Source: a virus
Virus record (IMG/VR): IMGVR_UViG_3300020021_000003
Location: 1,877 to 65,876 of that record
Length of the DNA: 64,000 nt
Strand: one strand, 5' to 3'
The position numbers and the translations under genes were made by a program. The notes beneath the pieces were generated by a model. The model searched no databases. It saw only the letters and a list, made by a program, of their open reading frames with translations, and was not told the origin of the DNA. Below, piece after piece: positions 33,283 to 49,287 of the stretch (position 1 is its first letter; every line of letters starts with the position of its first letter).

Positions 33283-34350
33283 TTACTGCTCCGCAGACGG
33301 ACGAACCAACTCCCACACCTTCTCTGAGATGCTCTTGTTATCCAGTAGGGAGAACATGAAACCCTGGTACTGCATTCCCTTTACCCTCTGTGCGAAATCC
33401 TTTCGAGTTCCACCATCAGGAAACTTCTCAGTGTTCTGCATGTCCCAGACTGCTAATTGGAAGTCGTGCTTGATGGCCTCAATCGTCATCATGTAGTCAT
33501 AAGCAATGGCACTGTATGTCTTACTCAACCAGGCATGCCACTCGTCCGGAACGATAGCGTAAAGCTCTGGAAGAGTCTTGCCGTCCTTCATGTTCTCCCA
33601 GATACGACGCTCTGTCAAGCCAGTCACGATCTTGTGCAGAAGCACGTAATCCCCTTGCTTGATCTTGATTCGGTAGTCCAACTCGGGGAAGTACACTACG
33701 AACCCCTCAGCATTGGTGCGTGGAGGGGCCTCCAATGCCTCTGTAAGCGTCTTGTAGGGGAAGGTAGTGGTCTTGGGACCATACCACTCCTCCACGTCCT
33801 TAGCGGCCCGTACAGCGCCTGTTACAGCATTACGTGCAGCCAGCAGCACAAGGTCTTCCCGATCCCCATAGTTCAGGACCACTCGGTTCCCAGGATAGAT
33901 GATCTCTACCAGGTAGGTCTCCTCATACCACAGATCAAGCTTGTAGTCCTTGTGCGGAGTGTGCAGGAAACTGGTTGCCCAGACTGCCTGATCGGAAGTA
34001 AAGGAACCGCGAGTCGCTACGTGCCATTCGCCCTCGTACTCAAAGACAATACCGAGTGAACCATCCATCTTGTCGGTAACCTCAACTGTATAATCCTTGA
34101 GGAATACGTCAGACTGGTTCTGGCCATAGTTCAGGAACTTGTCGAAAGGCCGCGCGACAATATTGAGCTTATTATCGATAATCAGATCTCGACACTGACG
34201 AGTTACCTCGTTCCACACGTTCTCGAACTGAGACTTTTCCGTATAATTGACAATAGAGATAGGCAGATTCGGGTGCTTGTTGACCCGAATATACTTCTCA
34301 AACAGCATCATCCGGTACAAGTCCATCGGCATAATATCCCATAGCTTCAC
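33283..34350 (-). CDS. RNA ligase (T4 Rnl1-like)
   Basis: NIVARPFDKFLN, motif I KMDGSLG, ATRGSF and motif IV EGFVV...IKIK. Confidence 0.92.
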   Translation of the reverse strand: MKLWDIMPMDLYRMMLFEKYIRVNKHPNLPISIVNYTEKSQFENVWNEVTRQCRDLIIDNKLNIVARPFDKFLNYGQNQSDVFLKDYTVEVTDKMDGSLGIVFEYEGEWHVATRGSFTSDQAVWATSFLHTPHKDYKLDLWYEETYLVEIIYPGNRVVLNYGDREDLVLLAARNAVTGAVRAAKDVEEWYGPKTTTFPYKTLTEALEAPPRTNAEGFVVYFPELDYRIKIKQGDYVLLHKIVTGLTERRIWENMKDGKTLPELYAIVPDEWHAWLSKTYSAIAYDYMMTIEAIKHDFQLAVWDMQNTEKFPDGGTRKDFAQRVKGMQYQGFMFSLLDNKSISEKVWELVRPSAEQ

Positions 34351-36412: not shown

Positions 36413-36559
36413 TTATCTCCTTGTAAGCTGTGCTTCAGTAAATAATCTGCCATTGACTTTGTACTTGCATAGTCCATGCATGCATTCACGAGCAGTTATC
36501 TTACCTTCACCACCCTGATAGGAAACATGGTCTCCGATATTGAATTTATATCTGGACAC
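36413..36559 (-). CDS. Small SH3/KOW-like protein
   Basis: GTG start behind AGGAGG, KFNIGDHV motif. Confidence 0.5.
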   Translation of the reverse strand: MSRYKFNIGDHVSYQGGEGKITARECMHGLCKYKVNGRLFTEAQLTRR

Positions 36560-36747
36560 TATACCTCCTGAGTAGTTTGGTGGTATCCCCTGAATTTGAA
36601 TCAGGAACTTCGTGCTTATGGCCCGATCGGTTAATAGATCTACTGACAATCTACCCAACTAGTACACAAACCTTCACTGTCGCTACCACGGCCGATCCAC
36701 GACGGTTCGTCAGTTTATGCTTTTCACAGCTTACCTACAGAATACCG

Positions 36748-36820
36748 TACCCCTGACTGGATTCGAACCAGCAATTTTCGGCTTAGAAGGCCGTTGAGTT
36801 GTCCCTTACTCTACAGAGGC
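36748..36820 (-). tRNA. tRNA-Arg(TCT)
   Basis: Loop CTTCTAA, cloverleaf. Confidence 0.88.
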
Positions 36821-36907
36821 ATACGTAACAGACCTATTGTATCCGCTTCTCCTTCAGTCTGCTACTTCCAATTCGGGGAAGGAGCTGACGGCCCCAAATT
36901 TAAAACT

Positions 36908-37345
36908 TTAATCCCACCAGCCGTACCAATCGTACTTGGAGTCAGTATAGATGTCAACTTCTTCCCAGTCTCCGTCCAGCAAAGCTTCTCTGATCTGCTG
37001 TCTCACTTTAGAGCGGATAGCTCCGTTTGTCAACTGCTTGATATCCTTGTTGCTTCGGATGTTCGGGTAGTACTCAAGCCAGTGACAGCAGTGCTTATCG
37101 TCTCGGTATCTTGAATCGTTAGGACTTTCGGGAAGGTCCAGAGTACAGTCTACATACTCAGACCAGCTATTGTAAATACCAGCCATGTACCAGACTACTT
37201 CGTTGCCGTAGCCGTCCTTACGCATGATAGGCTCTTCACCGATTCGTTCCCTATGGGTAACCAAGTGATGATGGTACGCATATCGGTCCATCTTAGGATC
37301 ATTCTTGAGAACCCAATAAGGACGGTCCTTGAGTGTGCGAGACAT
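36908..37345 (-). CDS. Hypothetical protein
   Basis: 145 aa, GGAGG RBS, MSRT.K.RPYWV start. Confidence 0.65.
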   Translation of the reverse strand: MSRTLKDRPYWVLKNDPKMDRYAYHHHLVTHRERIGEEPIMRKDGYGNEVVWYMAGIYNSWSEYVDCTLDLPESPNDSRYRDDKHCCHWLEYYPNIRSNKDIKQLTNGAIRSKVRQQIREALLDGDWEEVDIYTDSKYDWYGWWD

Positions 37346-37377
37346 ACAAACCTCCGATAGTGCTAGGAGTTCTTACG

Positions 37378-37413
37378 TGTCGGTAGAGGGATTCGAACCC
37401 CCGACTTCCTCAC
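37378..37413 (-). pseudogene. 3' half of split tRNA-Arg(ACG)
   Basis: GTGAG-GAAGTC-T arm-TACCGAC-A. Acceptor strand is perfectly complementary to GTCGGTA at 37979. Confidence 0.8.
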
Positions 37414-37436
37414 CAACTGAGTAGACGCTTTTAACG

Positions 37437-37512
37437 TACCCCTGACTGGATTCGAACCAGCATGTGTCCATTAACCTTTCAACGCGTTCGTAGCGCGAGG
37501 GTATACAGAGGC
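37437..37512 (-). tRNA. D-armless tRNA-Arg(ACG)-like element
   Basis: Acceptor GCCTCTG/CAGGGGT, anticodon arm CGCG-CTACGAA-CGCG, canonical T arm, no D stem. Confidence 0.55.
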
Positions 37513-37935
37513 AGGACCAGTCCACCATCCAAACTGCTCAAAGGTCTTTCTCCTGTGACAGTTTGCACATAGTACCTGGCATTTATCAATCTCAGCTTGA
37601 ACAGTCTCAATCTTAGAGACATTCTTGGCTGCTTCACTAATGTTGAACGATTTGATAGAAGGATCTAGATGATCAAACTCTAGCATACGTGGATCAGTTT
37701 CACCACAGTGAACACAAGGATGATCAAGTAAGTAGCTCCAGACGTACTCTCGTATTATCTGTATATATCTTAGATCGTTCTTTCTAGCCTTGTCAAGATA
37801 GACTTGCTTGTTAGCTGTGTAATGATCCCTGTTGTATTGGTTGTGGCAGGGCTTACACATTGAGCTTTTCGAAGCAAACTCACTTAATGGCTTTTCGATA
37901 CTGCACTTGCTACATGTCTTCATGCTATTAATCAT
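37471..37935 (-). CDS. HNH homing endonuclease
   Basis: N-terminal CxxC...CxxC, then CVHCGE..LEFDH...CQVLCANCHRRKT. Confidence 0.9.
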   Translation of the reverse strand: MINSMKTCSKCSIEKPLSEFASKSSMCKPCHNQYNRDHYTANKQVYLDKARKNDLRYIQIIREYVWSYLLDHPCVHCGETDPRMLEFDHLDPSIKSFNISEAAKNVSKIETVQAEIDKCQVLCANCHRRKTFEQFGWWTGPASVYPRATNALKG

Positions 37936-37941
37936 AGCACG

Positions 37942-37979
37942 TTCGTAGGCAAGTGCTCTATCCGCTGAGCTATACCGAC
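37942..37979 (-). pseudogene. 5' half of split tRNA-Arg(ACG)
   Basis: Exactly positions 1-38: GTCGGTA TA GCTC AGCGGATA GAGC A CTTGC CTACGAA. Confidence 0.85.
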
Positions 37980-38001
37980 AGAGCCCCGAAGGGCTTGATA
38001 C

Positions 38002-38286
38002 TTAGTATTGAATTTGTTCTCCGTTGATATAGAGAACATATCCCTTGGGAAGCCCAATGTCAACTCGTCCAGCCCGTTGCTTTACAGTGACGCCACCAGC
38101 CTGAGTAATGCTGATGCTGCTGTTGTCACTGAATACATTATTGTAACTTCCAGCCCCAGCAGTACGATTACCCGTTCCTCTTACCTTAACACTACTATTT
38201 GTTCCAATAGCGTTGCCAGTGATATTCCCACCAGCTTGAACGATCGTGCTGTTCTTGCCGCCACGAGCCCTCTGAAAAATCTGCAC
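38002..38286 (-). CDS. Gly-rich hypothetical protein
   Basis: 94-aa ORF, likely beta-solenoid-like. Confidence 0.6.
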   Translation of the reverse strand: MQIFQRARGGKNSTIVQAGGNITGNAIGTNSSVKVRGTGNRTAGAGSYNNVFSDNSSISITQAGGVTVKQRAGRVDIGLPKGYVLYINGEQIQY

Positions 38287-38293
38287 TGTGCTC

Positions 38294-38779
38294 CTATTCA
38301 GTGAACGGAATCAACTGTCCTGGTGTTACTAGGCTTGGCAGTCTGTCATCAGTGAAGAGATGAACACCGGCCATGCTGTACACGTAGTCCACAATCTGAG
38401 AACAGATCATGTGCTTTGATTTCACTACTCTAGCAGTCAAGAAGGGCACTGGCAAGTGGAACCTCTTGGCCGCAATAGCAAAGTAGTCCAGGAAGCTGTA
38501 TGGGACGCCCTTGAGAGCTGCTGCGTAGTCTATGATGTCCTTGCGCTGTTCGATCGCCAGGGGCACCGTAGAGACCCGTACAGAGGCATACTTGGAGGCA
38601 TCAGAGACGATCGCACCACCAGGCATAGCTTCAAGGATCTTTCCGTTGTACATGTAGATGAAAGCGTGCTCATAGTTCTTGAAGCCGTCTCCGTTAAGCC
38701 ATTGGCCTAATCGGATGAGAAAGCCTACTCCACCAGGAATACTTGTTAAGCCGAAATCTCCTGGCTGGGCGTCTCTCAT
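38294..38779 (-). CDS. Permuted papain-like NlpC/P60 (YiiX/YaeF-like) protein
   Basis: PGD..L, YEHAFIY, G.PYSF and ICSQIV motifs. Confidence 0.8.
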   Translation of the reverse strand: MRDAQPGDFGLTSIPGGVGFLIRLGQWLNGDGFKNYEHAFIYMYNGKILEAMPGGAIVSDASKYASVRVSTVPLAIEQRKDIIDYAAALKGVPYSFLDYFAIAAKRFHLPVPFLTARVVKSKHMICSQIVDYVYSMAGVHLFTDDRLPSLVTPGQLIPFTE

Positions 38780-38796
38780 ATCTCTCCTCGTTAAAG

Positions 38797-38869
38797 TGCT
38801 GGCAGCAGGGATCGAACCCGCAGAATTTCGATTAAAAGTCGAATACCGTAGCCATTTGGTTATACCAGC
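38797..38869 (-). tRNA. tRNA-Lys(TTT)
   Basis: Loop CTTTTAA. Confidence 0.88.
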
Positions 38870-38895
38870 ATACAGCCCTTTCGGGCCGGTCGAAC

Positions 38896-39369
38896 TTACT
38901 TGCCTGTACCAGCCTGTGCAGTGATGGTAGGAACGCCACCCTGTCCATCAGGGACATAGATAACAGTGTTGTTCTTTCCAGACTGTGCAATAGCCTGTAG
39001 CGCCTGAATCTGCTCCCATTGAAGATACATGGGGGTCAGGGTCTTGGCAATCTCATCCTGTGCCCTACGGACACCTACAGCCTGCTGGAAACGAATGTCA
39101 GCCTGCTGTTCAGTAACCTGAAGCTGTTGCTTCTGGTTGGAAATTTCGATCTCAGTCACTTGGACCTTGTTGTTCGCGGCGATAATCGCGTTCTTAGCAG
39201 CGTTGTTTGCCTTGATGGTAGCATTCTGTGCATTAGTATTCGCATTCTTAGTACTCTGTGAACGGTTGAAATCACTGCAACCAGCAACACCACCAGTCAA
39301 AATACCACCTGCAACCACAACGACGACTAGCCAACTAGCAGCAACAGCAAGGGGATTGGACTGTGCCAT
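38896..39369 (-). CDS. Membrane-anchored coiled-coil protein with SPFH-like C-terminus
   Basis: N-terminal TM helix, I...LTP.YLQWE.I.AL...NNTVIYVP. Confidence 0.6.
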   Translation of the reverse strand: MAQSNPLAVAASWLVVVVVAGGILTGGVAGCSDFNRSQSTKNANTNAQNATIKANNAAKNAIIAANNKVQVTEIEISNQKQQLQVTEQQADIRFQQAVGVRRAQDEIAKTLTPMYLQWEQIQALQAIAQSGKNNTVIYVPDGQGGVPTITAQAGTGK

Positions 39370-39406
39370 ATTCTTTTTGCCTCCGAATTAGTACTCCGTT
39401 ATAACG

Positions 39407-39477
39407 AGCCTCACCAGGGAATCGGACCCTGTTCCACGCCTTACGAAAGCGTTATTCTACCAGTGAACTAATGAGGC
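39407..39477 (-). tRNA. tRNA-Thr(CGT)
   Basis: Loop TTCGTAA. Confidence 0.85.
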
Positions 39478-39523
39478 AGAGCCGGGCGGGTACCATGCCT
39501 GGTATGCATTCCCTAACCCAACG

Positions 39524-39596
39524 AGCCTTATCTCGGAGTCGAACCGAGTCTCTCTCCGTACCAAGGAGAAGTGCTAACCATAGTCACTAATAAGGC
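39524..39596 (-). tRNA. tRNA-Thr(GGT)
   Basis: Loop TTGGTAC. Confidence 0.88.
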
Positions 39597-39609
39597 ATTA
39601 CTACTTACG

Positions 39610-39680
39610 TACTCCTCCGGGGTATCGAACCCCGTTCCGCTGGGTAAGAGCCAGCTACATCACCTTAATGCTTGAGGAGC
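39610..39680 (-). tRNA. tRNA-Lys(CTT)
   Basis: Loop CTCTTAC. Confidence 0.88.
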
Positions 39681-39712
39681 ATAAGCCTTACTGTTTTAGT
39701 AAGGCTGCCAAA

Positions 39713-39958
39713 CTATGAGAATCCTTTACCGTTCATGTGCTTATCGCAGAAGGAGTTACCCTCAGAAGCTTCGTCCTTACATGTCCGCTTCTCACAGATG
39801 TAAGGAGTAGAACCAGCAGTCCACTTCTCCCGATCTTCCGCAGTCCAGCCCTTTGGATCAGGAGGACCAAGTTTGATGCCGTGAATATTTGTCTTTGACT
39901 TCCCCGGCTTAGCAGGTGGCTCTGCACCTGCTGGGTACTTCGGTGTCCAGAATCCCAT
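39713..39958 (-). CDS. Hypothetical protein with C-terminal Cys/His motif
   Basis: 81 aa, GGAGG RBS, C-x4-C-x10-C-x2-H. Confidence 0.55.
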   Translation of the reverse strand: MGFWTPKYPAGAEPPAKPGKSKTNIHGIKLGPPDPKGWTAEDREKWTAGSTPYICEKRTCKDEASEGNSFCDKHMNGKGFS

Positions 39959-39989
39959 AGTTTTGCCTCCTATGTCAATGAATAAAACG

Positions 39990-40059
39990 TGGAGCTAGTC
40001 GGAATCGAACCGACTGCAACGACTTTGCAAAAGTAGTCCGCTACCTCAGCGTTAGCCCC
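39990..40059 (-). tRNA. tRNA-Ala(TGC)
   Basis: G3:U70, loop TTTGCAA, short D loop. Confidence 0.8.
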
Positions 40060-40061
40060 AT

Positions 40062-40175
40062 TGTAGGTGGTGTCCCCGTTATCACTGCACGACGACTCCA
40101 AGATAAGCATTAGCCCAGTGATACTCAGCATATCTTATCCCAGAAGGCATCCACATACTCGTTGCCCTTCGGTGT
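40062..40175 (-). ncRNA. Putative pseudoknotted ncRNA with its own promoter
   Basis: TTGACT-18-TAAGAT upstream. TATCACTG in a hairpin loop is complementary to downstream CAGTGATA. Confidence 0.4.
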
Positions 40176-40276
40176 TCTTATATCTTAGCAGATCAACTAG
40201 TGGCTAGTCAACCTGTGGTACGTTATAAGGGTAAAAATAATCTCCACCAGTATTTCTACGGTGGAGAGGATTAAGG

Positions 40277-40348
40277 CTCCCACAGCTGGATTCGAACCAA
40301 CAACCTTGGAGTTAACAGCTCCCTGCTCTGCCATTGAGCTATGCGGGA
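40277..40348 (-). tRNA. tRNA-Asn(GTT)
   Basis: Loop CTGTTAA, G73. Confidence 0.92.
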
Positions 40349-40432
40349 AAAACCTGAACCACAAGGGAACAGGTGGGTTATAACTTACTACTTAACATGA
40401 TACTCGAAGTTGTTTTCTCATGTCAAGCAAAG

Positions 40433-40503
40433 CACGCCCCGTAGGAATCGAACCCACGCTTAGAGGTTTGGAATCTCTAGTACTACCATTATACGAGAGG
40501 CAT
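40433..40503 (-). tRNA. tRNA-Trp(CCA)
   Basis: Loop TTCCAAA. Confidence 0.85.
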
Positions 40504-40547
40504 AAGTTGGTTCCGTTGTTCATGCCCAACGGTTTCCTAAAAGCTCG

Positions 40548-40621
40548 TACGGGTGGAGGGACTCGAACCCCCGACGCATGGTTTCTAAGACCACGTCCTC
40601 TAGCCACTGGGATACACCCGC
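40548..40621 (-). tRNA. tRNA-Leu(TAG), short variable loop
   Basis: Loop CTTAGAA. Confidence 0.85.
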
Positions 40622-40686
40622 ATACTGGACTACCTACGATTAAGTTGTATACCTGGAGCTTATCACACGTTACAACGGTTGTCCAG

Positions 40687-40759
40687 TAGTTCTAGTCGGA
40701 CTCGAACCGACACTGTTTCGATTTTAAGTCGAATGCCTCTGCCATTGGGCTATAGAACC
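40687..40759 (-). tRNA. tRNA-Leu(TAA), short variable loop
   Basis: Loop CTTAAAA. Confidence 0.88.
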
Positions 40760-40811
40760 ATAGATCTACTAGGAGTGTTCTAGTTCTGTGTTTATACTTC
40801 CGTTCAATACG

Positions 40812-40885
40812 TACTCCAGGTCGGACTTGAACCGACACTAGCACAGTTTTTGAGACTGTGTCCTCTGCCATTGGGATACTGGAGC
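40812..40885 (-). tRNA. tRNA-Leu(CAA), short variable loop
   Basis: Loop CTCAAAA. Confidence 0.88.
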
Positions 40886-40889
40886 ATAA

Positions 40890-41120
40890 GGTGAGGGTCT
40901 GGAACCATTGTCCAGTCTCACCACACAGGTCTTTAGCTTTTAGTCGGGTCAACGCTTTCCACTTACTGTACCCCGGAAGTACCATCCACGTCAAGCTGTC
41001 CGTGCCAGGAGTTACTGTGCAGAACCTAAAAACTATTCGATGGGAAAGCACGTTCGTAGCATATTACAGGGGCGGTAAAACCGATTACAATCGCTAGCAG
41101 ATTACCCAGACCATCGAATA
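40890..41120 (-). ncRNA. Putative structured ncRNA
   Basis: Perfect 10-bp helix 41034-43/41111-20 plus further hairpins, and no credible ORF. Confidence 0.4.
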
Positions 41121-41123
41121 AAG

Positions 41124-41198
41124 AGCCCCATGTCGGATTCGAACCGACGACCTGCGCTTTACAAGAGCGCTGCTCTGACCGGACTGAGCTAACAGGGC
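41124..41198 (-). tRNA. tRNA-Thr(TGT)
   Basis: Loop CTTGTAA. Confidence 0.93.
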
Positions 41199-41263
41199 AA
41201 TCCCACTATATCCTATTACCCAGCGCAAGTGGTCAACGCCAGAACCCGTATTAGGGGGTTATA

Positions 41264-41566
41264 TTAGGCAGTACCAGTTGCGGTAATTGCCCAGTCTGTG
41301 TTCAGGTTGACTGTGAAGTCAGTTGGTAGGTTGTAAACGCTACTGTTGTTCAACTGGAATGTTACCAGACCATCTCCAGCGCCGGTACCAGGTGGTAGAG
41401 GAGCTGCGAAGATTGCACGAACAGTAGTAGGATAACCTACACCAGAACCAGAAGCAGGAGTTGGGTAAACGTACCCGTGTCCGTCAGCACAAAGGACACC
41501 TACGACCTGAGTACCCACTGCTGGAGTTGTAGCTGTGAACTTAGCTACAGAATATGTAAAAGCCAT
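41264..41566 (-). CDS. Small beta-rich virion-like protein
   Basis: 100 aa, AGGAG RBS, T/G/P-rich. Confidence 0.6.
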   Translation of the reverse strand: MAFTYSVAKFTATTPAVGTQVVGVLCADGHGYVYPTPASGSGVGYPTTVRAIFAAPLPPGTGAGDGLVTFQLNNSSVYNLPTDFTVNLNTDWAITATGTA

Positions 41567-41643
41567 TTGTTCTCCTAGGAGTTTAGAAATTGCCGCTATA
41601 GCAACTTAATTCTACCACCCTTAGAAGATATTAAATTGTGGAG

Positions 41644-41715
41644 CACCCCCAGTGAGAATTGAACTCACTCCTCAGGCTTGAAAGGCCAGTGTACTAACCA
41701 ATATACTATGGGGAC
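41644..41715 (-). tRNA. tRNA-Glu(TTC)
   Basis: Loop CTTTCAA. Confidence 0.88.
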
Positions 41716-41917
41716 AAAAGCCCTGCCAGTTCCTGAGAACGACAGGGAGCAATCTCAGGTAGCGAGCCTGAGTATAAAACAGTCCTTGGGGCTATCCATC
41801 CCTTAACTGCACTGAAAAGTCGAACATAGGCAGCGTATTCCAATTTTCGCTAACACAACCCACTACAACCCCTCCAGGGCATGGCCATTGCTTTGGAACC
41901 TATGCAGATAGCTAACG

Positions 41918-41991
41918 TACTCCAGACGGGATTCGAACCCGCAATCTTCACCTTGAGAGGGTGACGAGATAACCGCTTACTCTACTGGAGC
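41918..41991 (-). tRNA. tRNA-Glu(CTC)
   Basis: Loop CTCTCAA. Confidence 0.9.
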
Positions 41992-42109
41992 ATACACCAG
42001 GGCCGTTTCCATGGCAACCCTGGTTTCACCTGTGCTCCCCGTTAGGATAGGCTAGGGTCTTCCCGCCCTAGTAGGTATCACAGCATCCATGGCGCTATGA
42101 GATTCAAGT

Positions 42110-42250
42110 CTAGAATTTCTTGGGACGCTTTTCCATTTCAGCCCGAATCTTCTTTAGTTCGAGCTTAGCTTGTAGCTTGGCTTTCACTCGGGAAATGGGA
42201 CTATCTAGGATAGCCTGCCATTTCTTCTCGTAAATCTTCAGATCACTCAT
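42110..42250 (-). CDS. 46-aa basic peptide
   Basis: My translation is MSDLKIYEKKWQAILDSPISRVKAKLQAKLELKKIRAEMEKRPKKF, with no clear RBS. Confidence 0.35.
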   Translation of the reverse strand: MSDLKIYEKKWQAILDSPISRVKAKLQAKLELKKIRAEMEKRPKKF

Positions 42251-42272
42251 GGGTTTGTATGTGTAGTCCACG

Positions 42273-42344
42273 TCAACCCAACGGGAGTCGAACCCGCTCT
42301 AACACCGTGACAGGGTGTCGTGCGCACCGGTACACTATGGATCG
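42273..42344 (-). tRNA. tRNA-Asp(GTC)
   Basis: Loop CTGTCAC. Confidence 0.85.
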
Positions 42345-42379
42345 AATACGAGAAGTTTACCTGCTCTCGCTCAGGATGT

Positions 42380-42691
42380 CTAGTACTTAGGCCACACAAC
42401 ATCTGGTGTTACTGAAGTAACCGTACCATTCTTGATGACTGCTCGCTCGACGTCCAAGCTGTCCTCACCTTCACGCTCGATTACCAAGTAGTTGTCTGGA
42501 TAGAGCGTAGCAAGGTCTTGAAGGTCTGTCAACCAGTAATACCACTTGGTAGCGTCATAACCCTGGATACCATTACCGTAGTCTTCCCAACCAGGATGAC
42601 CCCAGTCCTTCTCATCTCCTAAATCATTTAAGACATTGAGAATATCGGGAATATCAGTATCGATAACTTCGAATGTTGAATAGTAACCCAT
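42380..42691 (-). CDS. Acidic hypothetical protein
   Basis: GGAGG RBS, MGYYSTF...KWY motif typical of small phage proteins. Confidence 0.65.
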   Translation of the reverse strand: MGYYSTFEVIDTDIPDILNVLNDLGDEKDWGHPGWEDYGNGIQGYDATKWYYWLTDLQDLATLYPDNYLVIEREGEDSLDVERAVIKNGTVTSVTPDVVWPKY

Positions 42692-42716
42692 AGTTGCCTC
42701 CATAGATTGTAGGATT

Positions 42717-42809
42717 TTCGTAGAGTGGGACTTGAACCCACATCCGTTACTACCCAGTCGGGTGCACCTTTACTAGAAGGTCTCGTCTGCCAATTGCTAA
42801 TATCTACGA
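42717..42809 (-). tRNA. Atypical tRNA-like element, possible CTA anticodon
   Basis: Perfect acceptor TCGTAGA/TCTACGA and T arm, but a 6- or 8-nt anticodon loop around CTAGTA and an enlarged variable region. Confidence 0.4.
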
Positions 42810-42814
42810 AAAAG

Positions 42815-42887
42815 CTGGAGATGTAGGATTCGAACCTACACTTTCCTGATTCAAAGTCAGGTGGGCTGCCAATTACCCCAATCTCCA
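42815..42887 (-). tRNA. tRNA-Gln(TTG)
   Basis: Loop CTTTGAA. Confidence 0.92.
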
Positions 42888-43118
42888 ATTAATTACTTAG
42901 TTTACACAGGTGCGGTCGGGTTTACCCCGATCCACCGGCCTTCATCCACATCCTCCGTAGTCTGCGACTACTCCTCAACTAAGCAAGTGTTTGACGTGTG
43001 TGGCTCTACCTTAAAGGGTAGCCCCAGCTCTTTCCTTATCTTATCGCCACTTTCCACACTTTTACGTACGTTATTATGTGTGTTCCATATTGACTACTTC
43101 CGGAATTCTGTACGTCAG

Positions 43119-43189
43119 CTCCCCGACCTGGATTCGAACCAAGTCTAGCGGCTTCAGAGACCGCTGTGCTGCCGTTACACCATCGGGGA
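43119..43189 (-). tRNA. tRNA-Gln(CTG)
   Basis: Loop CTCTGAA. Confidence 0.92.
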
Positions 43190-43246
43190 ATAAAGCGGTA
43201 TTTATTTGGTTTTTCACCAAGAGGCGAACCGCAGAACCTCATTGCG

Positions 43247-43317
43247 TACCGTATGCCGGAATCGGACCGGCGAACTCTGTTTGGAAGACAGATATGTTAC
43301 CTCTACATCAATACGGC
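43247..43317 (-). tRNA. tRNA-Gly(TCC)
   Basis: Loop CTTCCAA. Confidence 0.88.
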
Positions 43318-43402
43318 ATTGGGAAGGGCTAACCTAACTTCACATTAGGCTCTTTTACTTTACGCACCCAACGATAACGCAAAACCCCAAAAGGGTAGGT
43401 GG

Positions 43403-43436
43403 GAGCAGGAAATCGGACTCGCACCGACAATCTCTG
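43403..43436 (-). pseudogene. 3' remnant of split initiator-type tRNA-Met
   Basis: CAG-AGATT-GTCGG-TGCGAGT-CCGAT-TTCCTGC. Its TCCTGC complements GCAGGA at 44166. Confidence 0.6.
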
Positions 43437-43442
43437 CCTCAG

Positions 43443-43515
43443 TGGCCCATTCCGCACTCGCAGCGGACGATCTCAAGCTTATGAGGCTTGCGAGACACTA
43501 TTTCTCTATATGGGC
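43443..43515 (-). tRNA. Atypical tRNA(CAT)
   Basis: CAAGC-CTCATAA-GCTTG arm, T loop TGCGAGT, irregular acceptor register. Confidence 0.65.
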
Positions 43516-43521
43516 ATGAAT

Positions 43522-43550
43522 TGCAGACCTAAGACTCGATCTGATACAAT
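43522..43550 (+). promoter_or_regulatory. Promoter for a leaderless HNH transcript
   Basis: TTGCAG-18-TACAAT (extended TG), with ATG 6 nt downstream. Confidence 0.55.
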
Positions 43551-43556
43551 TAAAAC

Positions 43557-44147
43557 ATGATTATACTAACCTGTCAAGCCTGCAACCTTGACTTTCAGCG
43601 CAAGACCAGCCAGCATAATAGTAATCTAAAGAGAGGAAGAAAACTTATAGCCTGCTCACGTGATTGTCTAACAATACTACAAACAAAACCTAAAGTCGAA
43701 TATCACTGTGAGGAATGTAACACTATATTTTCTAGAAAGAAAAGTAATAAAGATTTTTGTAGATTTTGTTCAACATCATGTTCTGCTAAATATACTACTA
43801 GAATACGATTTAAGGATTATGTATCTACAGCTAAATCATATGTAAAGAAACCTAAGTCGATTAATACCACTACATTACAAGATTTAAAAGATAAGTATTC
43901 AATATCTCAATATCATGCAAAAATTAGAGGTTGGTCTAGACAAGTGTACAAAGATTCGGGTAGACCATTATGCTGTTATAACTGCGGCTATGATCTACAC
44001 GTAGATATTTGTCATATACAGGACGTCAAGAGTTTTCCTATGACTACTCTAGTATCTGTTGTTAATGCCCCAGATAATTTAATAGCTCTAGATAAAAGGT
44101 GCCACTGGGAATTTGACAATGGATATCTTGAGTTGAGCCCAGTGTAG
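43557..44147 (+). CDS. HNH homing endonuclease, antisense to the tRNA operon
   Basis: Several N-terminal CxxC motifs, then CYNCGY...ICHI...NAPDNLIALDKRCHWEFD. Markedly AT-rich. Confidence 0.88.
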   Translation: MIILTCQACNLDFQRKTSQHNSNLKRGRKLIACSRDCLTILQTKPKVEYHCEECNTIFSRKKSNKDFCRFCSTSCSAKYTTRIRFKDYVSTAKSYVKKPKSINTTTLQDLKDKYSISQYHAKIRGWSRQVYKDSGRPLCCYNCGYDLHVDICHIQDVKSFPMTTLVSVVNAPDNLIALDKRCHWEFDNGYLELSPV

Positions 44148-44167
44148 AAGCATTCTACCATCCTGCG
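44134..44167 (-). pseudogene. 5' remnant of split initiator-type tRNA-Met
   Basis: CGCAGGA TG GTAG-loop-CTAC A CTGGG CTCA, with fMet-type C1 and GGG29-31, broken inside the anticodon. Confidence 0.6.
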
Positions 44168-44169
44168 AG

Positions 44170-44241
44170 TAGTGCATGGGGGAATCGAACCACCGACGAA
44201 GAGGATATGAATCTCTCGTTCTACCACTGAACTAATGCACC
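44170..44241 (-). tRNA. tRNA-Met/Ile2(CAT)
   Basis: Loop TTCATAT, cloverleaf. Confidence 0.82.
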
Positions 44242-44388
44242 ATTAATATTGCGGGCAGGATTCGTACCTGCGAACACCTTCGCTCTTGGCTAGTATGCAT
44301 TGATACGCATCACCGCAATTGTGGTCGGTCCTGAATCTAATCAAAGATTCCAACACCCCAATGGATCAGAAAGGGATTTACGGACCAG

Positions 44389-44461
44389 TGGCTCCCCCCG
44401 GATTTGAACCGAGATACATCGGGCTTCAACCGATTGCTCTACCAAGTTGAGCTAAAGAGCC
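44389..44461 (-). tRNA. tRNA-Phe(GAA)
   Basis: Loop TTGAAGC. Confidence 0.9.
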
Positions 44462-44537
44462 AGTGAGTTACTTACTTGTATTTAGCATCGTATCTATTAT
44501 GTGATTTGGTGATGTCTATACATTGATCATAACTCTA

Positions 44538-44611
44538 GTCTAATGCCGGGGTAACGCTCCCCGTGTCTTCGGTTTCCAAAACCGACGGATTACTTTCTTC
44601 CTCGCACTAGA
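44538..44611 (-). tRNA. tRNA-Pro(TGG), non-canonical T loop
   Basis: Loop TTTGGAA, T loop AGCGTTA. Confidence 0.65.
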
Positions 44612-44622
44612 TTAATACTACG

Positions 44623-44693
44623 TCGGGATAGGGAGAATCGAACTCCCGCTGCTAGTTCCCAAAACTAGCGCGCTACCATTACGCGATATCCCG
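44623..44693 (-). tRNA. tRNA-Pro(TGG)
   Basis: Loop TTTGGGA. Confidence 0.9.
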
Positions 44694-44743
44694 TCAGTTA
44701 CAGAGTCTGGTTAGAGTCCCTGTAACTTTTGGAGGCAAGTCCT

Positions 44744-44772
44744 ATTCTAGCAGCTTGCCAGGTGTAAGTCAA
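44744..44772 (-). promoter_or_regulatory. Promoter at the head of the tRNA array
   Basis: TTGACT-17-TAGAAT. Confidence 0.75.
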
Positions 44773-44908
44773 TATTTATGGTCCTTACCACCAGGACCAT
44801 AATTACGTGCATGTTCTGTACAGACCCAGATGAGCTTACCACGGTACTGGATCTGTACGCTAGCTGGTTTCTTGCATCTCGACTTCCAGCACCGGTTCTG
44901 CATAGGGT

Positions 44909-45133
44909 CTACAGTACCACGGTTACTTCATCTCCGTCAACCTTTGCTATCAGTACTTCACCAGAGCGAACTGAGACCTTCAAACCTACCAAGTCCTTGA
45001 GAGGCTCTGTGTGCTCCCAGACTATGTTGTAGTGACCCAGATGGTCAAGTAGGTCTTCTGTGACCTCCAGAGAGCCTCCTAGCCTGTGTAGAGCAGCTAC
45101 CAGGAGCCTAGCCAATGTCTGTTCCTGAGTCAA
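44909..45133 (-). CDS. Hypothetical protein
   Basis: 74 aa, TTG start behind GGAAGG. Confidence 0.5.
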   Translation of the reverse strand: MTQEQTLARLLVAALHRLGGSLEVTEDLLDHLGHYNIVWEHTEPLKDLVGLKVSVRSGEVLIAKVDGDEVTVVL

Positions 45134-47068: not shown

Positions 47069-47231
47069 ACAGAGAATCAATAACTATCTCAATAACGGCA
47101 GAACTGTTCTTACTTACAAGCAGGGCAGACGTTATACCCAGAAGTGGCGCAAGTTCATGCAGTGCGCCGATGAAGATGCTTATTACGAAATATGGAAAGA
47201 ATCCGTCAGCAAGTACTGGTATGGAGAATAG
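47055..47231 (+). CDS. Small hypothetical protein
   Basis: My translation gives 58 aa from GTG behind AAGGA. Confidence 0.45.
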   Translation: MLTPEQRINNYLNNGRTVLTYKQGRRYTQKWRKFMQCADEDAYYEIWKESVSKYWYGE

Positions 47232-47233
47232 TA

Positions 47234-47746
47234 ATGTGCGGGATGCACTATCGTCGTTGGAGAGTCAATGGTGATCCTCAAATAGTACGAGTTATACGAG
47301 AAAATCCTGAAGCTGCCTTTTGGAGCAAGGTTACCAAAGATCCTGAATCGGGGTGTTGGTTGTGGACTGGTGCGACTAACCACAACGGTTATGGCAAAAT
47401 ACAGCGTGAGGGTACTACTCAAGCAGCACATATCTGGGCTTATAAGACTTTCGTAGGTGAAATTCCAGAGGGATACCAGATAGATCATGTAAAAAGTGTG
47501 GGTTGTTTACACCGTAACTGTGTAAACTATGAAAATCATCTTGAAGCAGTGACTTCTGAAGAGAATTTTCTTAGAAGTCATGGAATTGCCCGAGTTAATA
47601 AAGATAAGACGCATTGTAAAAATGGGCATGAGTTCACTGAAGAGAACACCATAGTAAAAATTAATTCACGAACGGGTAAGCCGTTCCGAAACTGCCGGGA
47701 GTGTAGAAATGCAAGTCAAAGAAAGTCAGGTGTTGCCCACGTCTAG
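47234..47746 (+). CDS. HNH homing endonuclease (HNH_3 type)
   Basis: FWSKV...CWLWTG...GYG...AH...Y...G.IP...IDH...C.N..HLE.VT..EN, then KTHCKNGHEF. Confidence 0.9.
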   Translation: MCGMHYRRWRVNGDPQIVRVIRENPEAAFWSKVTKDPESGCWLWTGATNHNGYGKIQREGTTQAAHIWAYKTFVGEIPEGYQIDHVKSVGCLHRNCVNYENHLEAVTSEENFLRSHGIARVNKDKTHCKNGHEFTEENTIVKINSRTGKPFRNCRECRNASQRKSGVAHV

Positions 47747-48615: not shown

Positions 48616-49287
48616 ATGAAATATTGGTACGATACAGAATTCATTGACGACGGATATACTATCGAGTTGTTAAGCATCGGTATTGTCGCAGAGGACGGTA
48701 GGGAGTACTATGCTGTCGTCAAGGACATCTACACAATGCGCAGGGCATGGGATATGAAGTCGGGAAATGAATTCTGGCTCCGCAAGAACGTTATGAACAG
48801 CCTTCCCTTCCTCCCTTCCGGCAACTGGGACGAAAACCATTTCGACTACACGAACCTGAAGACCAGAGCAGAGATAGCAAGGGAAGTAGAGGATTTCTTC
48901 CTGGACATAGAGCATAGGGACCGTACACAGATGCTTCCGCATGTAGAACTGTGGGCATGGTTCGCAGCTTACGACCATGTAGCACTGAGCCAGCTTTTCG
49001 GGCGCATGCTGGACCTTCCTGAAGGTATACCGATGTACACCAACGACATCAAGCAGGAGCACCACAGACTAGGCTTCCCACGTGTCCCACAGCAGGCTCA
49101 AGGGGCTCACAACGCCCTGGAAGACGCACGATGGAACAAGACTGCCTATGAGTACTTAGCGTCCCTTGACGGGCCTATTGCGCGCTCTGAGGACGGTACG
49201 CTACTCTACATGCAGACAGGCTTCGACGGATCGGTCTACGCACAAGCAGTTCCTACAGCAAACCCGAAGCGTACACGCGTCTGGTAA
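48616..49287 (+). CDS. 3'-5' exoribonuclease (DEDDh, RNase AS-like)
   Basis: YWYDTEFIDDG.TIELLSIGIVAEDGREYYAV, AYDHV and HNALEDARW. Confidence 0.88.
   Translation: MKYWYDTEFIDDGYTIELLSIGIVAEDGREYYAVVKDIYTMRRAWDMKSGNEFWLRKNVMNSLPFLPSGNWDENHFDYTNLKTRAEIAREVEDFFLDIEHRDRTQMLPHVELWAWFAAYDHVALSQLFGRMLDLPEGIPMYTNDIKQEHHRLGFPRVPQQAQGAHNALEDARWNKTAYEYLASLDGPIARSEDGTLLYMQTGFDGSVYAQAVPTANPKRTRVW

Follow-up and report, generated by a model that had tools for sequence, protein, structure and literature searches.

Homing endonucleases encoded among phage tRNA genes are already known, and the F-Tfl HNH nickases of phage T5 are free-standing homing endonucleases of this kind, located in the tRNA region. In T-even phages such as T4 and T6, units made up of the GIY-YIG nuclease gene segB and a tRNA gene rearrange via microhomology between the nuclease gene and the tRNA (PMC13096335). 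The present study concerns a 64,000-nucleotide (nt) stretch of viral DNA, positions 1,877 to 65,876 of IMG/VR virus record IMGVR_UViG_3300020021_000003 (hereafter the window), in which a tRNA-Arg(ACG) gene is split at its anticodon loop by a 528-nt insert carrying an HNH endonuclease gene and a second, structurally unusual tRNA-Arg(ACG) gene without a D arm. We consider it reasonably probable, on the strength of sequence comparison, that the insert is a homing-type HNH-plus-tRNA cassette whose invasion inactivated the resident tRNA-Arg(ACG) gene while providing a replacement for it. Like the SegB and F-Tfl systems, the locus has a nuclease gene among phage tRNA genes that would move or rearrange with the adjacent tRNA. 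Unlike those nuclease genes, which lie between tRNA genes with no reported splitting, the cassette lies inside an anticodon loop, brings a complete substitute isoacceptor, and encodes an HNH protein of the phrog_2255 family. Our literature search found no description of a nuclease family that lands in the tRNA anticodon loop with its own isoacceptor.

Several other systems share single features with this locus. Group I introns interrupt bacterial tRNA genes in the anticodon loop, as in cyanobacterial tRNA-Leu(UAA), tRNA-fMet, Agrobacterium tRNA-Arg, and Azoarcus tRNA-Ile. The insertion described here likewise lies in a bacterial-type anticodon loop, and such introns can carry a homing endonuclease open reading frame (ORF); however, no catalytic core was detected in the insert, the 5′ exon ends in A rather than in the U expected of a P1 U-G pair, and a tRNA gene fills the non-coding space. 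In the Aeromonas phage Aeh1, insertion of the HNH gene mobE splits nrdA into two genes, and the protein pieces reassemble and stay functional. As in Aeh1, a free-standing HNH homing gene lies inside a conserved gene and leaves it in two collinear pieces, but a tRNA cut in the anticodon loop needs ligation to reassemble, and here a substitute gene is supplied instead. The mobE gene of T4 is treated in PMC2790892. Certain integrative elements insert at tRNA genes, bring along the part needed to replace what they displace, and leave fragments of the tRNA gene behind (PMC9897764). They share with our locus a mobile element that interrupts a tRNA gene, a function kept by the sequence that the element brings, and an orphan fragment left behind. 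They differ from it in using integrases and in restoring the same gene by a duplicated 3′ part, whereas the cassette has no integrase, brings a whole, different tRNA gene, and orphans both halves of its target. Finally, split tRNA genes are known from Nanoarchaeum equitans and D-armless tRNAs from mitochondria (PMC12221289, PMC2797822, PMC4394434). The gene examined here is split after position 37/38, as are the Nanoarchaeum halves, and its substitute works, if at all, without a D arm, as those mitochondrial tRNAs do. However, the complementary leaders and the bulge-helix-bulge recognized by the splicing endonuclease in Nanoarchaeum were not seen here and, unlike the shortened armless tRNAs of mitochondria, the substitute is of full length (76–78 nt across its family) and carries a strand resembling the D loop downstream of its anticodon arm.

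The window belongs to a viral contig of 101 kb from IMG/VR; the portal protein encoded there shares 77% identity with its counterparts in the Streptomyces phages BRock, GiJojo, Alone3, LuckySocke, and pSt2308. Thirty canonical tRNA genes form a minus-strand array with the gene order of these relatives, and the phage that hosts the split gene is a BRock-like, Streptomyces-type soil phage. The elements of the locus, together with the tRNA-Arg(UCU) gene against which the D-armless gene was compared, are as follows.

37942–37979, minus strand: 5′ half (positions 1–38) of the resident tRNA-Arg(ACG) gene, comprising the acceptor strand GTCGGTA, the D arm, the anticodon-stem strand CTTGC, and the loop CTACGAA (ARAGORN and alignment)
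37940–37948, minus strand: left junction with the 9-nt CTACGAACG, which recurs as a direct repeat in the D-armless tRNA gene, in its anticodon-loop region (37485–37493; sequence)
37471–37935, minus strand: HNH endonuclease ORF, 154 amino acids from the first ATG (Pfam HNH, E 9e-4; phrog_2255, E 3.7e-40)
37437–37512, minus strand: noncanonical, D-armless tRNA-Arg(ACG) gene, 76 nt (45-sequence family; covariance model)
37414–37436, minus strand: 23-nt linker between the D-armless tRNA gene and the 3′ half, kept in contigs of two other metagenomes
37378–37413, minus strand: 3′ half (positions 39–74) of the resident tRNA-Arg(ACG) gene, comprising the anticodon-stem strand GTGAG, the variable loop, the T arm, the acceptor strand TACCGAC, and the discriminator A (ARAGORN and alignment)
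36747–36820, minus strand: resident tRNA-Arg(UCU) gene (sequence comparison with the D-armless tRNA)

The initial annotation, made from the sequence alone, had recognized two halves of one tRNA-Arg(ACG) gene with perfectly complementary acceptor strands, separated by 528 nt that hold an HNH gene and a second tRNA-like gene with the same CTACGAA loop, and had stated that joining A38 to G39 restores a cloverleaf. The sequence, ARAGORN, and six orthologues bear this out. Joined, the halves form a 74-mer that ARAGORN calls tRNA-Arg(ACG), and in its intron mode the program reports, on the native DNA, a tRNA-Arg(ACG) with a 528-nt intron. ARAGORN puts the cut at 37/38; the ends are ambiguous between A and G, which makes 38/39 equally good. 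By chance, acceptor strands at given positions would show a 7/7 Watson–Crick match with a probability of ~6e-5. The uninterrupted allele, which the initial annotation had proposed to seek in related phages, is present at the syntenic position in six relatives: BRock, Alone3, GiJojo, LuckySocke, pSt2308, and the IMG/VR contig L069 (genome G001). The joined 74-nt sequence is collinear end to end with these six intact orthologues, with no base lost. In all six, a conserved small ORF and then tRNA-Arg(TCT) lie downstream of tRNA-Arg(ACG); with the insert removed, the distance to tRNA-Arg(TCT) is 631 bp in the window vs. 698–757 bp in the relatives. Apart from the split gene and the D-armless copy, the 101-kb genome is without an Arg(ACG) gene.

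The split locus is not an assembly artefact, because it is covered by a contig from the source sample and by contigs from two unrelated studies. Specifically, a Logan contig of the source sample covers the whole split stretch, and the right-hand junction is covered by contigs of the two other studies, one over 37368–37508 with 5 differences and the other over 37405–37644 with 12 differences, a divergence of 3–5%. With independent contigs spanning the right-hand junction, an assembly chimera was rejected. Exact-pattern scans of IMG/VR and the JGI metagenomes returned no further copies of the 3′ half and the right junction. Among public runs, the whole locus was found only in the source sample and in no RNA run, and a near-identity DNA search of phage records with the locus gave no match. 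Apparent joints among public contigs turned out to be intact tRNA genes of other organisms and not a spliced or empty form of the locus.

The HNH ORF in the insert is intact, and its translation contains the pattern CxxC...DH...N...CxxCH; its Pfam HNH match falls just below the gathering score. The true start is probably the second ATG, at 37923, since homologues begin with MKTC, and the stop codon falls within the downstream 76-nt tRNA gene. A tblastn search with the protein matched 636 phage records, many of them annotated as HNH endonuclease in tRNA arrays, and a sequence search of the PDB gave no meaningful match. The nearest homologue, 77% identical in amino acid sequence, lies at the same locus in L069 in another arrangement: there the HNH gene is directly 5′ of an intact canonical tRNA-Arg(ACG), the identity of the DNA reaches as far as the first base of that tRNA, CTACGAA again stands before the shared start region, and no tRNA halves are present. 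The gene is thus polymorphic at this position, being absent from it in BRock, Alone3, GiJojo, LuckySocke, and pSt2308 and otherwise arranged in L069. In exact-pattern scans the HNH start motif was confined to the contig of L069, and the 3′ end of the gene had no copies in the JGI metagenomes. The heptamer CTACGAA also stands before the HNH start in L069, A3Wally, and Spilled. As a separate observation, the segment GCACTTGC-C-TAC in the 5′ half (37951–37962) can pair with GTA-GCAAGTGC (37900–37912) in the first HNH codons, all on the minus strand. This pairing, which L069 does not have, encloses both candidate start codons and may reflect translational control or chance.

The association of this HNH family with tRNA anticodon loops is not confined to the window. 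Across 15 loci, the HNH start has within ~35 nt of it a free-standing copy of the anticodon-loop heptamer of a flanking tRNA, identical at 7 of the 15 and agreeing in 6 of 7 bases at 5 more, with chance estimated at ~0.007 per locus. In Wofford (Met) and at locus L032 (Phe), the heptamer ends a whole stranded 5′ half. At L032 (325–838) the tRNA-Phe 5′ half is followed by the HNH gene and, after the HNH stop codon, by a T arm, an acceptor strand, and CCA, and the ARAGORN intron mode cannot join these halves. In Wofford (L091, 279–314) the tRNA-Met 5′ half alone is left, and in Paradiddles and Naboo (L088 and L093) a decayed 3′ tRNA-Thr fragment follows the HNH gene. HNH genes lie between two isoacceptors in JimJam, Wofford, Forrest, and A3Wally, in layouts such as Pro-HNH-Pro and Met-HNH-Met, and more distant HNH homologues lie directly 5′ of a D-armless tRNA gene in A3Wally (ACG), TunaTartare (UCG), and Mildred21 (UCG). 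Perfect hairpins are found just before HNH starts, with the anticodon-loop sequence as the 5′ arm and its complement as the 3′ arm (L090 305–337, L092 317–345, L089 310–337, L009 650–685, L088 322–350, L073 459–491, and L008 632–672); these may be a repair scar, an operator, or a terminator. Three orphan T-arm-like fragments also occur in a row in TunaTartare (L008 1355–1490), downstream of its HNH gene and D-armless tRNA gene, and look like further recombination debris.

The second tRNA gene of the insert is not a normal tRNA gene. The initial annotation had taken it for a replacement Arg-ACG tRNA; a gene with the ACG anticodon is indeed present, but it has no D arm and bears the acceptor and T arms of the resident tRNA-Arg(UCU). 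Neither ARAGORN nor Rfam RF00005 calls a tRNA at 37437–37512. A distant DNA search gave only tRNA-sized matches, including unannotated spots in the tRNA arrays of Mildred21 (a Streptomyces phage) and A3Wally (a Microbacterium phage), and IMG/VR pattern scans then yielded dozens more members. Forty-five distinct phage sequences were aligned over 78 columns (alignment A1), which takes in ~40 IMG/VR loci as well as the following members.

L001, 1500–1576: D-armless tRNA gene
L002, 1495–1571: D-armless tRNA gene of A3Wally
L008, 1139–1214: D-armless tRNA gene of TunaTartare
L073, 940–1015: D-armless tRNA gene of Mildred21

In the fold shared by the family, a 7-bp acceptor stem is followed by UA and one further base, a 3-bp helix, an internal loop of CU opposite UUGAAA, a 4-bp stem (5 bp with a U-U pair) closed by the 7-nt loop CU-NNN-AA, a ~14-nt linker (UAA.UGGA..CAUG), and then a normal T arm. 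Across the alignment, 99.4% of the cells at paired positions are paired, compensatory double changes occur at 14 of the 19 pairs, none of 500 shuffles was as good, and slid registers were far worse. The structure supported by covariation is a three-way junction, not a four-arm cloverleaf. Members score 88–96 bits against the covariance model and canonical tRNAs at most 27; the window copy scores 90.8. This copy has the 7-bp acceptor stem, the 3-bp helix, the CU/UUGAAA internal loop, a 4- to 5-bp anticodon stem with the 7-nt loop CUACGAA (U33 and a purine at position 37), the D-loop-like linker UAAUGGACACAUG, and a T arm with a 5-bp stem and a TTCGAAT-type loop. CCA is not encoded in it and is encoded in 28 of its 44 relatives. 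Read on into the opening bases of the 3′ half, the linker at 37414–37436 gives the D-arm-like CTCAGTTGGTGAG. Members sit without exception in phage tRNA arrays, on the array strand; among ~185,000 prokaryotic species genomes the ACG form occurs in one, on a contig of a metagenome-assembled genome. No description of this scaffold was found in the searchable literature.

The apical loop of the family varies at the three anticodon positions only, giving ACG, UCG, and UCU (Arg), UAU (Ile), and CAU; GAU occurs once, at a locus cut short at its end. The Arg-form loop reads C32 U33 NNN A37 A38, and in sequence the linker is similar to the D loop of the corresponding isotype, reading ..CUGGAUA.. in the Arg-type and ..GUUGGUU.. 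in the Ile-type members. We read the scaffold as a full-length D-armless tRNA in which a helix resembling the D stem would extend the anticodon arm and a D-loop-like strand would follow it. Judged by sequence, the GGA of the linker could stand in for G18 G19 A20 of tRNA-Arg. The window copy has C35 and G36 and the acceptor stem of tRNA-Arg(UCU). In 10 of ~22 arrays with Arg-type members, the acceptor stem best matches a canonical tRNA-Arg of the same phage, where ~3.6 were expected, and large arrays with the scaffold contain no canonical Arg(ACG). The loop, the linker GGA, the acceptor match, and the encoded CCA support an arginine identity, and the scaffold would be charged with arginine and used in decoding. 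The covariance model found no D-armless member in the arrays of BRock, Alone3, and G001 and exactly one in the window genome. The scaffold, absent from the arrays of relatives and widespread in other phages, was therefore imported. The window copy nevertheless shares its first 9 nt (plus one upstream nt) and its last 28 nt with the resident tRNA-Arg(UCU) gene 600 bp downstream, with 14 of 14 positions agreeing in the acceptor comparison; a conserved central module on resident arms is a sign of recombination between tRNA genes.

Two public annotations call for correction. Mildred21 gene 169 (L073, 940–1015), annotated as tRNA-Phe(gaa), is the UCG form of the D-armless tRNA. The reading of UUGAAAG as the anticodon loop (Phe) that this annotation implies was rejected: the string is invariant in the family, and the apical loop varies at the anticodon positions only. 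The tRNA names in A3Wally (genes 157–168) use the anticodon as the codon, so that its “Thr(acg)” and “Pro(ccg)” stand for Arg(ACG) and Arg(CCG), respectively. In the same phage, a stretch of ~95 nt downstream of the D-armless tRNA gene (L002 1575–1666) shows a GAAGGT/ACCTTC acceptor-like pairing, a D-arm-like hairpin, and a TTCAACT loop; ARAGORN makes no call on it, and it could represent a further unusual tRNA or what is left of one.

In the mechanism that we propose, the mobile unit would be a free-standing HNH homing endonuclease gene with the tRNA gene immediately 3′ of it, inserted between positions 38 and 39, where the anticodon loop ends on its 3′ side. The HNH enzyme would cut intact tRNA-Arg(ACG) genes near this point, and a donor with CTACGAA, the HNH gene, and the tRNA would serve as the template for repair of the break. 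The left join would form by microhomology at CTACGAA. The right join would fall downstream of the donor tRNA, because the D-armless scaffold has no homology to the 3′ half of the target, and both target halves would therefore be stranded. With a donor tRNA similar to the target, the target's 3′ half would instead be replaced, as in Wofford and L069. The SegB-tRNA units of T-even phages, with their comparable microhomology-driven rearrangements, offer a precedent (PMC13096335). The split halves would then be a dead gene, decoding of CGN codons would pass to the imported D-armless tRNA-Arg(ACG), and the D-armless gene may later have taken, or been built on, the acceptor and T arms of tRNA-Arg(UCU).

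Several observations weigh against this model. The cleavage target of the HNH enzyme is deduced from position only. The insertion is exact, with no base lost, which is cleaner than microhomology repair predicts and more like an intron. Both halves are undecayed, yet the right junction is already common to 3–5% divergent relatives from two other metagenomes. CTACGAA is found at the left edge of the cassette in three separate contexts and could instead serve as an operator or as part of a recognition site. Most members of the scaffold family do not lie beside an HNH gene, and the linkage is not obligate. Finally, the window copy lacks an encoded CCA, and to our knowledge neither charging nor ribosomal use of a D-armless tRNA has ever been shown in bacteria.

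As an alternative to the homing cassette, the initial annotation had offered an intron that proteins splice out, with the RNA ligase of the phage resealing the ends. The comparative evidence fits the former, and splicing is backed by nothing beyond a nearby ligase gene:

33283–34350, minus strand: T4 Rnl1-like RNA ligase gene, adjoining the tRNA array (Pfam RNA_lig_T4_1, E 5.5e-15)

In such a scheme a protein, whether the HNH enzyme itself or an RNase of host or phage origin, would cut the precursor at both ends of the 528 nt, and an Rnl1-type ligase would join the exons into a working canonical tRNA-Arg(ACG). Exact insertion at the classical anticodon-loop position, two perfect halves, the ligase gene beside the array, and the recurrence of related HNH genes after position 38 of different tRNAs would all suit this explanation, which we nonetheless consider highly improbable. 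The initial annotation had seen no group I or II intron core, and no Rfam match at E ≤ 1 contradicts it: Intron_gpI has no match at that threshold on either strand of 36500–45000 and none at E ≤ 10 at the L032 locus, and all other Rfam families gave nothing relevant in the window or L032. The border rule of group I introns, by which the exon ends in U and the intron in G, does not hold either, as the last base of exon 1 is A with either cut and the intron ends in G with the 38/39 cut only. In the minimum free energy fold of the 602-nt transcript, the anticodon-stem strand pairs with the HNH start region (GCACTTGC with GCAAGTGC), and neither in this fold nor by eye was a 3-4-3 bulge-helix-bulge motif found, or complementary leaders. 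Moreover, RNase P and RNase Z would excise the embedded tRNA; the ends would then be imprecise, exon 1 keeping a tail of 465 nt and exon 2 a leader of 23 nt. Elsewhere, matching halves are absent (Wofford and L069), cannot be joined (L032 and a second site in the window, described below), or are decayed (Paradiddles), as expected of dead genes. For phrog_2255-type HNH genes in general to be protein-only tRNA introns after position 38, removed from the RNA by a nuclease and resealed by an Rnl1-type ligase so that the split tRNA-Arg(ACG) stays functional, with the embedded tRNA as a processing handle or back-up, strikes us as just as improbable.

Two further explanations deserve somewhat more weight. 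In the first, the split arose by illegitimate recombination of the usual sort between the array's many tRNA genes, which resemble one another, and the HNH gene is a passenger that does not target tRNA-Arg; we judge this unlikely. The D-armless gene is itself a chimera with tRNA-Arg(UCU) arms, so recombination between tRNA genes does occur here, and T-arm fragments litter other arrays such as that of TunaTartare. However, the architecture is found twice in the window genome, each time with an HNH gene, and unrelated phages show it again with homologous HNH genes, in every case at the remnant of an anticodon loop, an association far above chance. It is also conceivable, if rather doubtful, that the D-armless RNA is a non-decoding mimic, serving as a decoy for an anticodon nuclease or TadA or as an RNase P/Z processing signal, and that the phage has lost its own decoding by Arg(ACG). 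Even in very dissimilar phages, the anticodon arm and the sequences beside it show extreme conservation and look like a protein-binding module, standard tRNA models reject the RNA, and we know of no bacterial D-armless tRNA that is charged. By contrast, variation of the loop at the three anticodon positions only (ACG, UCG, UCU, UAU, and CAU), linkers that resemble the D loop of the matching isotype, acceptor stems that match a tRNA-Arg of the same phage, CCA in most relatives, and the large arrays that carry the RNA without a canonical Arg(ACG) all speak for a decoding tRNA.

A nuclease family of the kind proposed would explain orphan tRNA halves in phage arrays, duplicated isoacceptors flanking HNH genes, and the reshuffling of arrays between unrelated phages. 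Because ARAGORN and Rfam miss the D-armless scaffold and the Mildred21 gene is misannotated, phage tRNA repertoires are incomplete, as are the arguments on codon usage or escape from anticodon nucleases that are built on them. If charged and used by bacterial ribosomes, the scaffold would be a new structural class of bacterial-type tRNA.

A second site in the array, at 43403–44167, has a related layout, with these elements.

44134–44167, minus strand: 5′ fragment of the second resident tRNA-Met gene, which is initiator-like, with the acceptor strand, the D arm, CTGGG, and CTCA (alignment with Alone3, BRock, and G001)
43557–44147, plus strand: HNH_2-type ORF of 196 amino acids, antisense to the tRNA array (Pfam HNH_2, E 2.8e-4)
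43442–43516, minus strand: complete, diverged tRNA-Met(CAT) gene between the fragments, homologous to the second tRNA-Met of the relatives (ARAGORN; Rfam tRNA, 32.1 bits)
43403–43436, minus strand: 3′ fragment (anticodon-stem end, variable region, T arm with a TGCGAGT loop, acceptor) of the second tRNA-Met gene (alignment)

The second tRNA-Met gene is intact in Alone3, BRock, and G001. In the window it breaks off after ...CTCA (44134) and resumes at ~43436, with ~5 nt lost, and the intron mode of ARAGORN cannot rejoin the pieces. The HNH_2 match is marginal (21.1 bits against a cut-off of 21), and the ORF has no PHROG match. The recurrence of the layout claimed in the initial annotation thus holds for the broken tRNA-Met, the HNH ORF, and the complete tRNA-Met, but not for a precise junction. 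The site fits the model proposed for the first one, and an event of that type, with another HNH gene as its driver, may have struck the second tRNA-Met. Past the array, the plus strand encodes a third HNH ORF (HNH_3; 47192–47746) and an Rv2179c-like 3′-5′ exoribonuclease (48616–49287).

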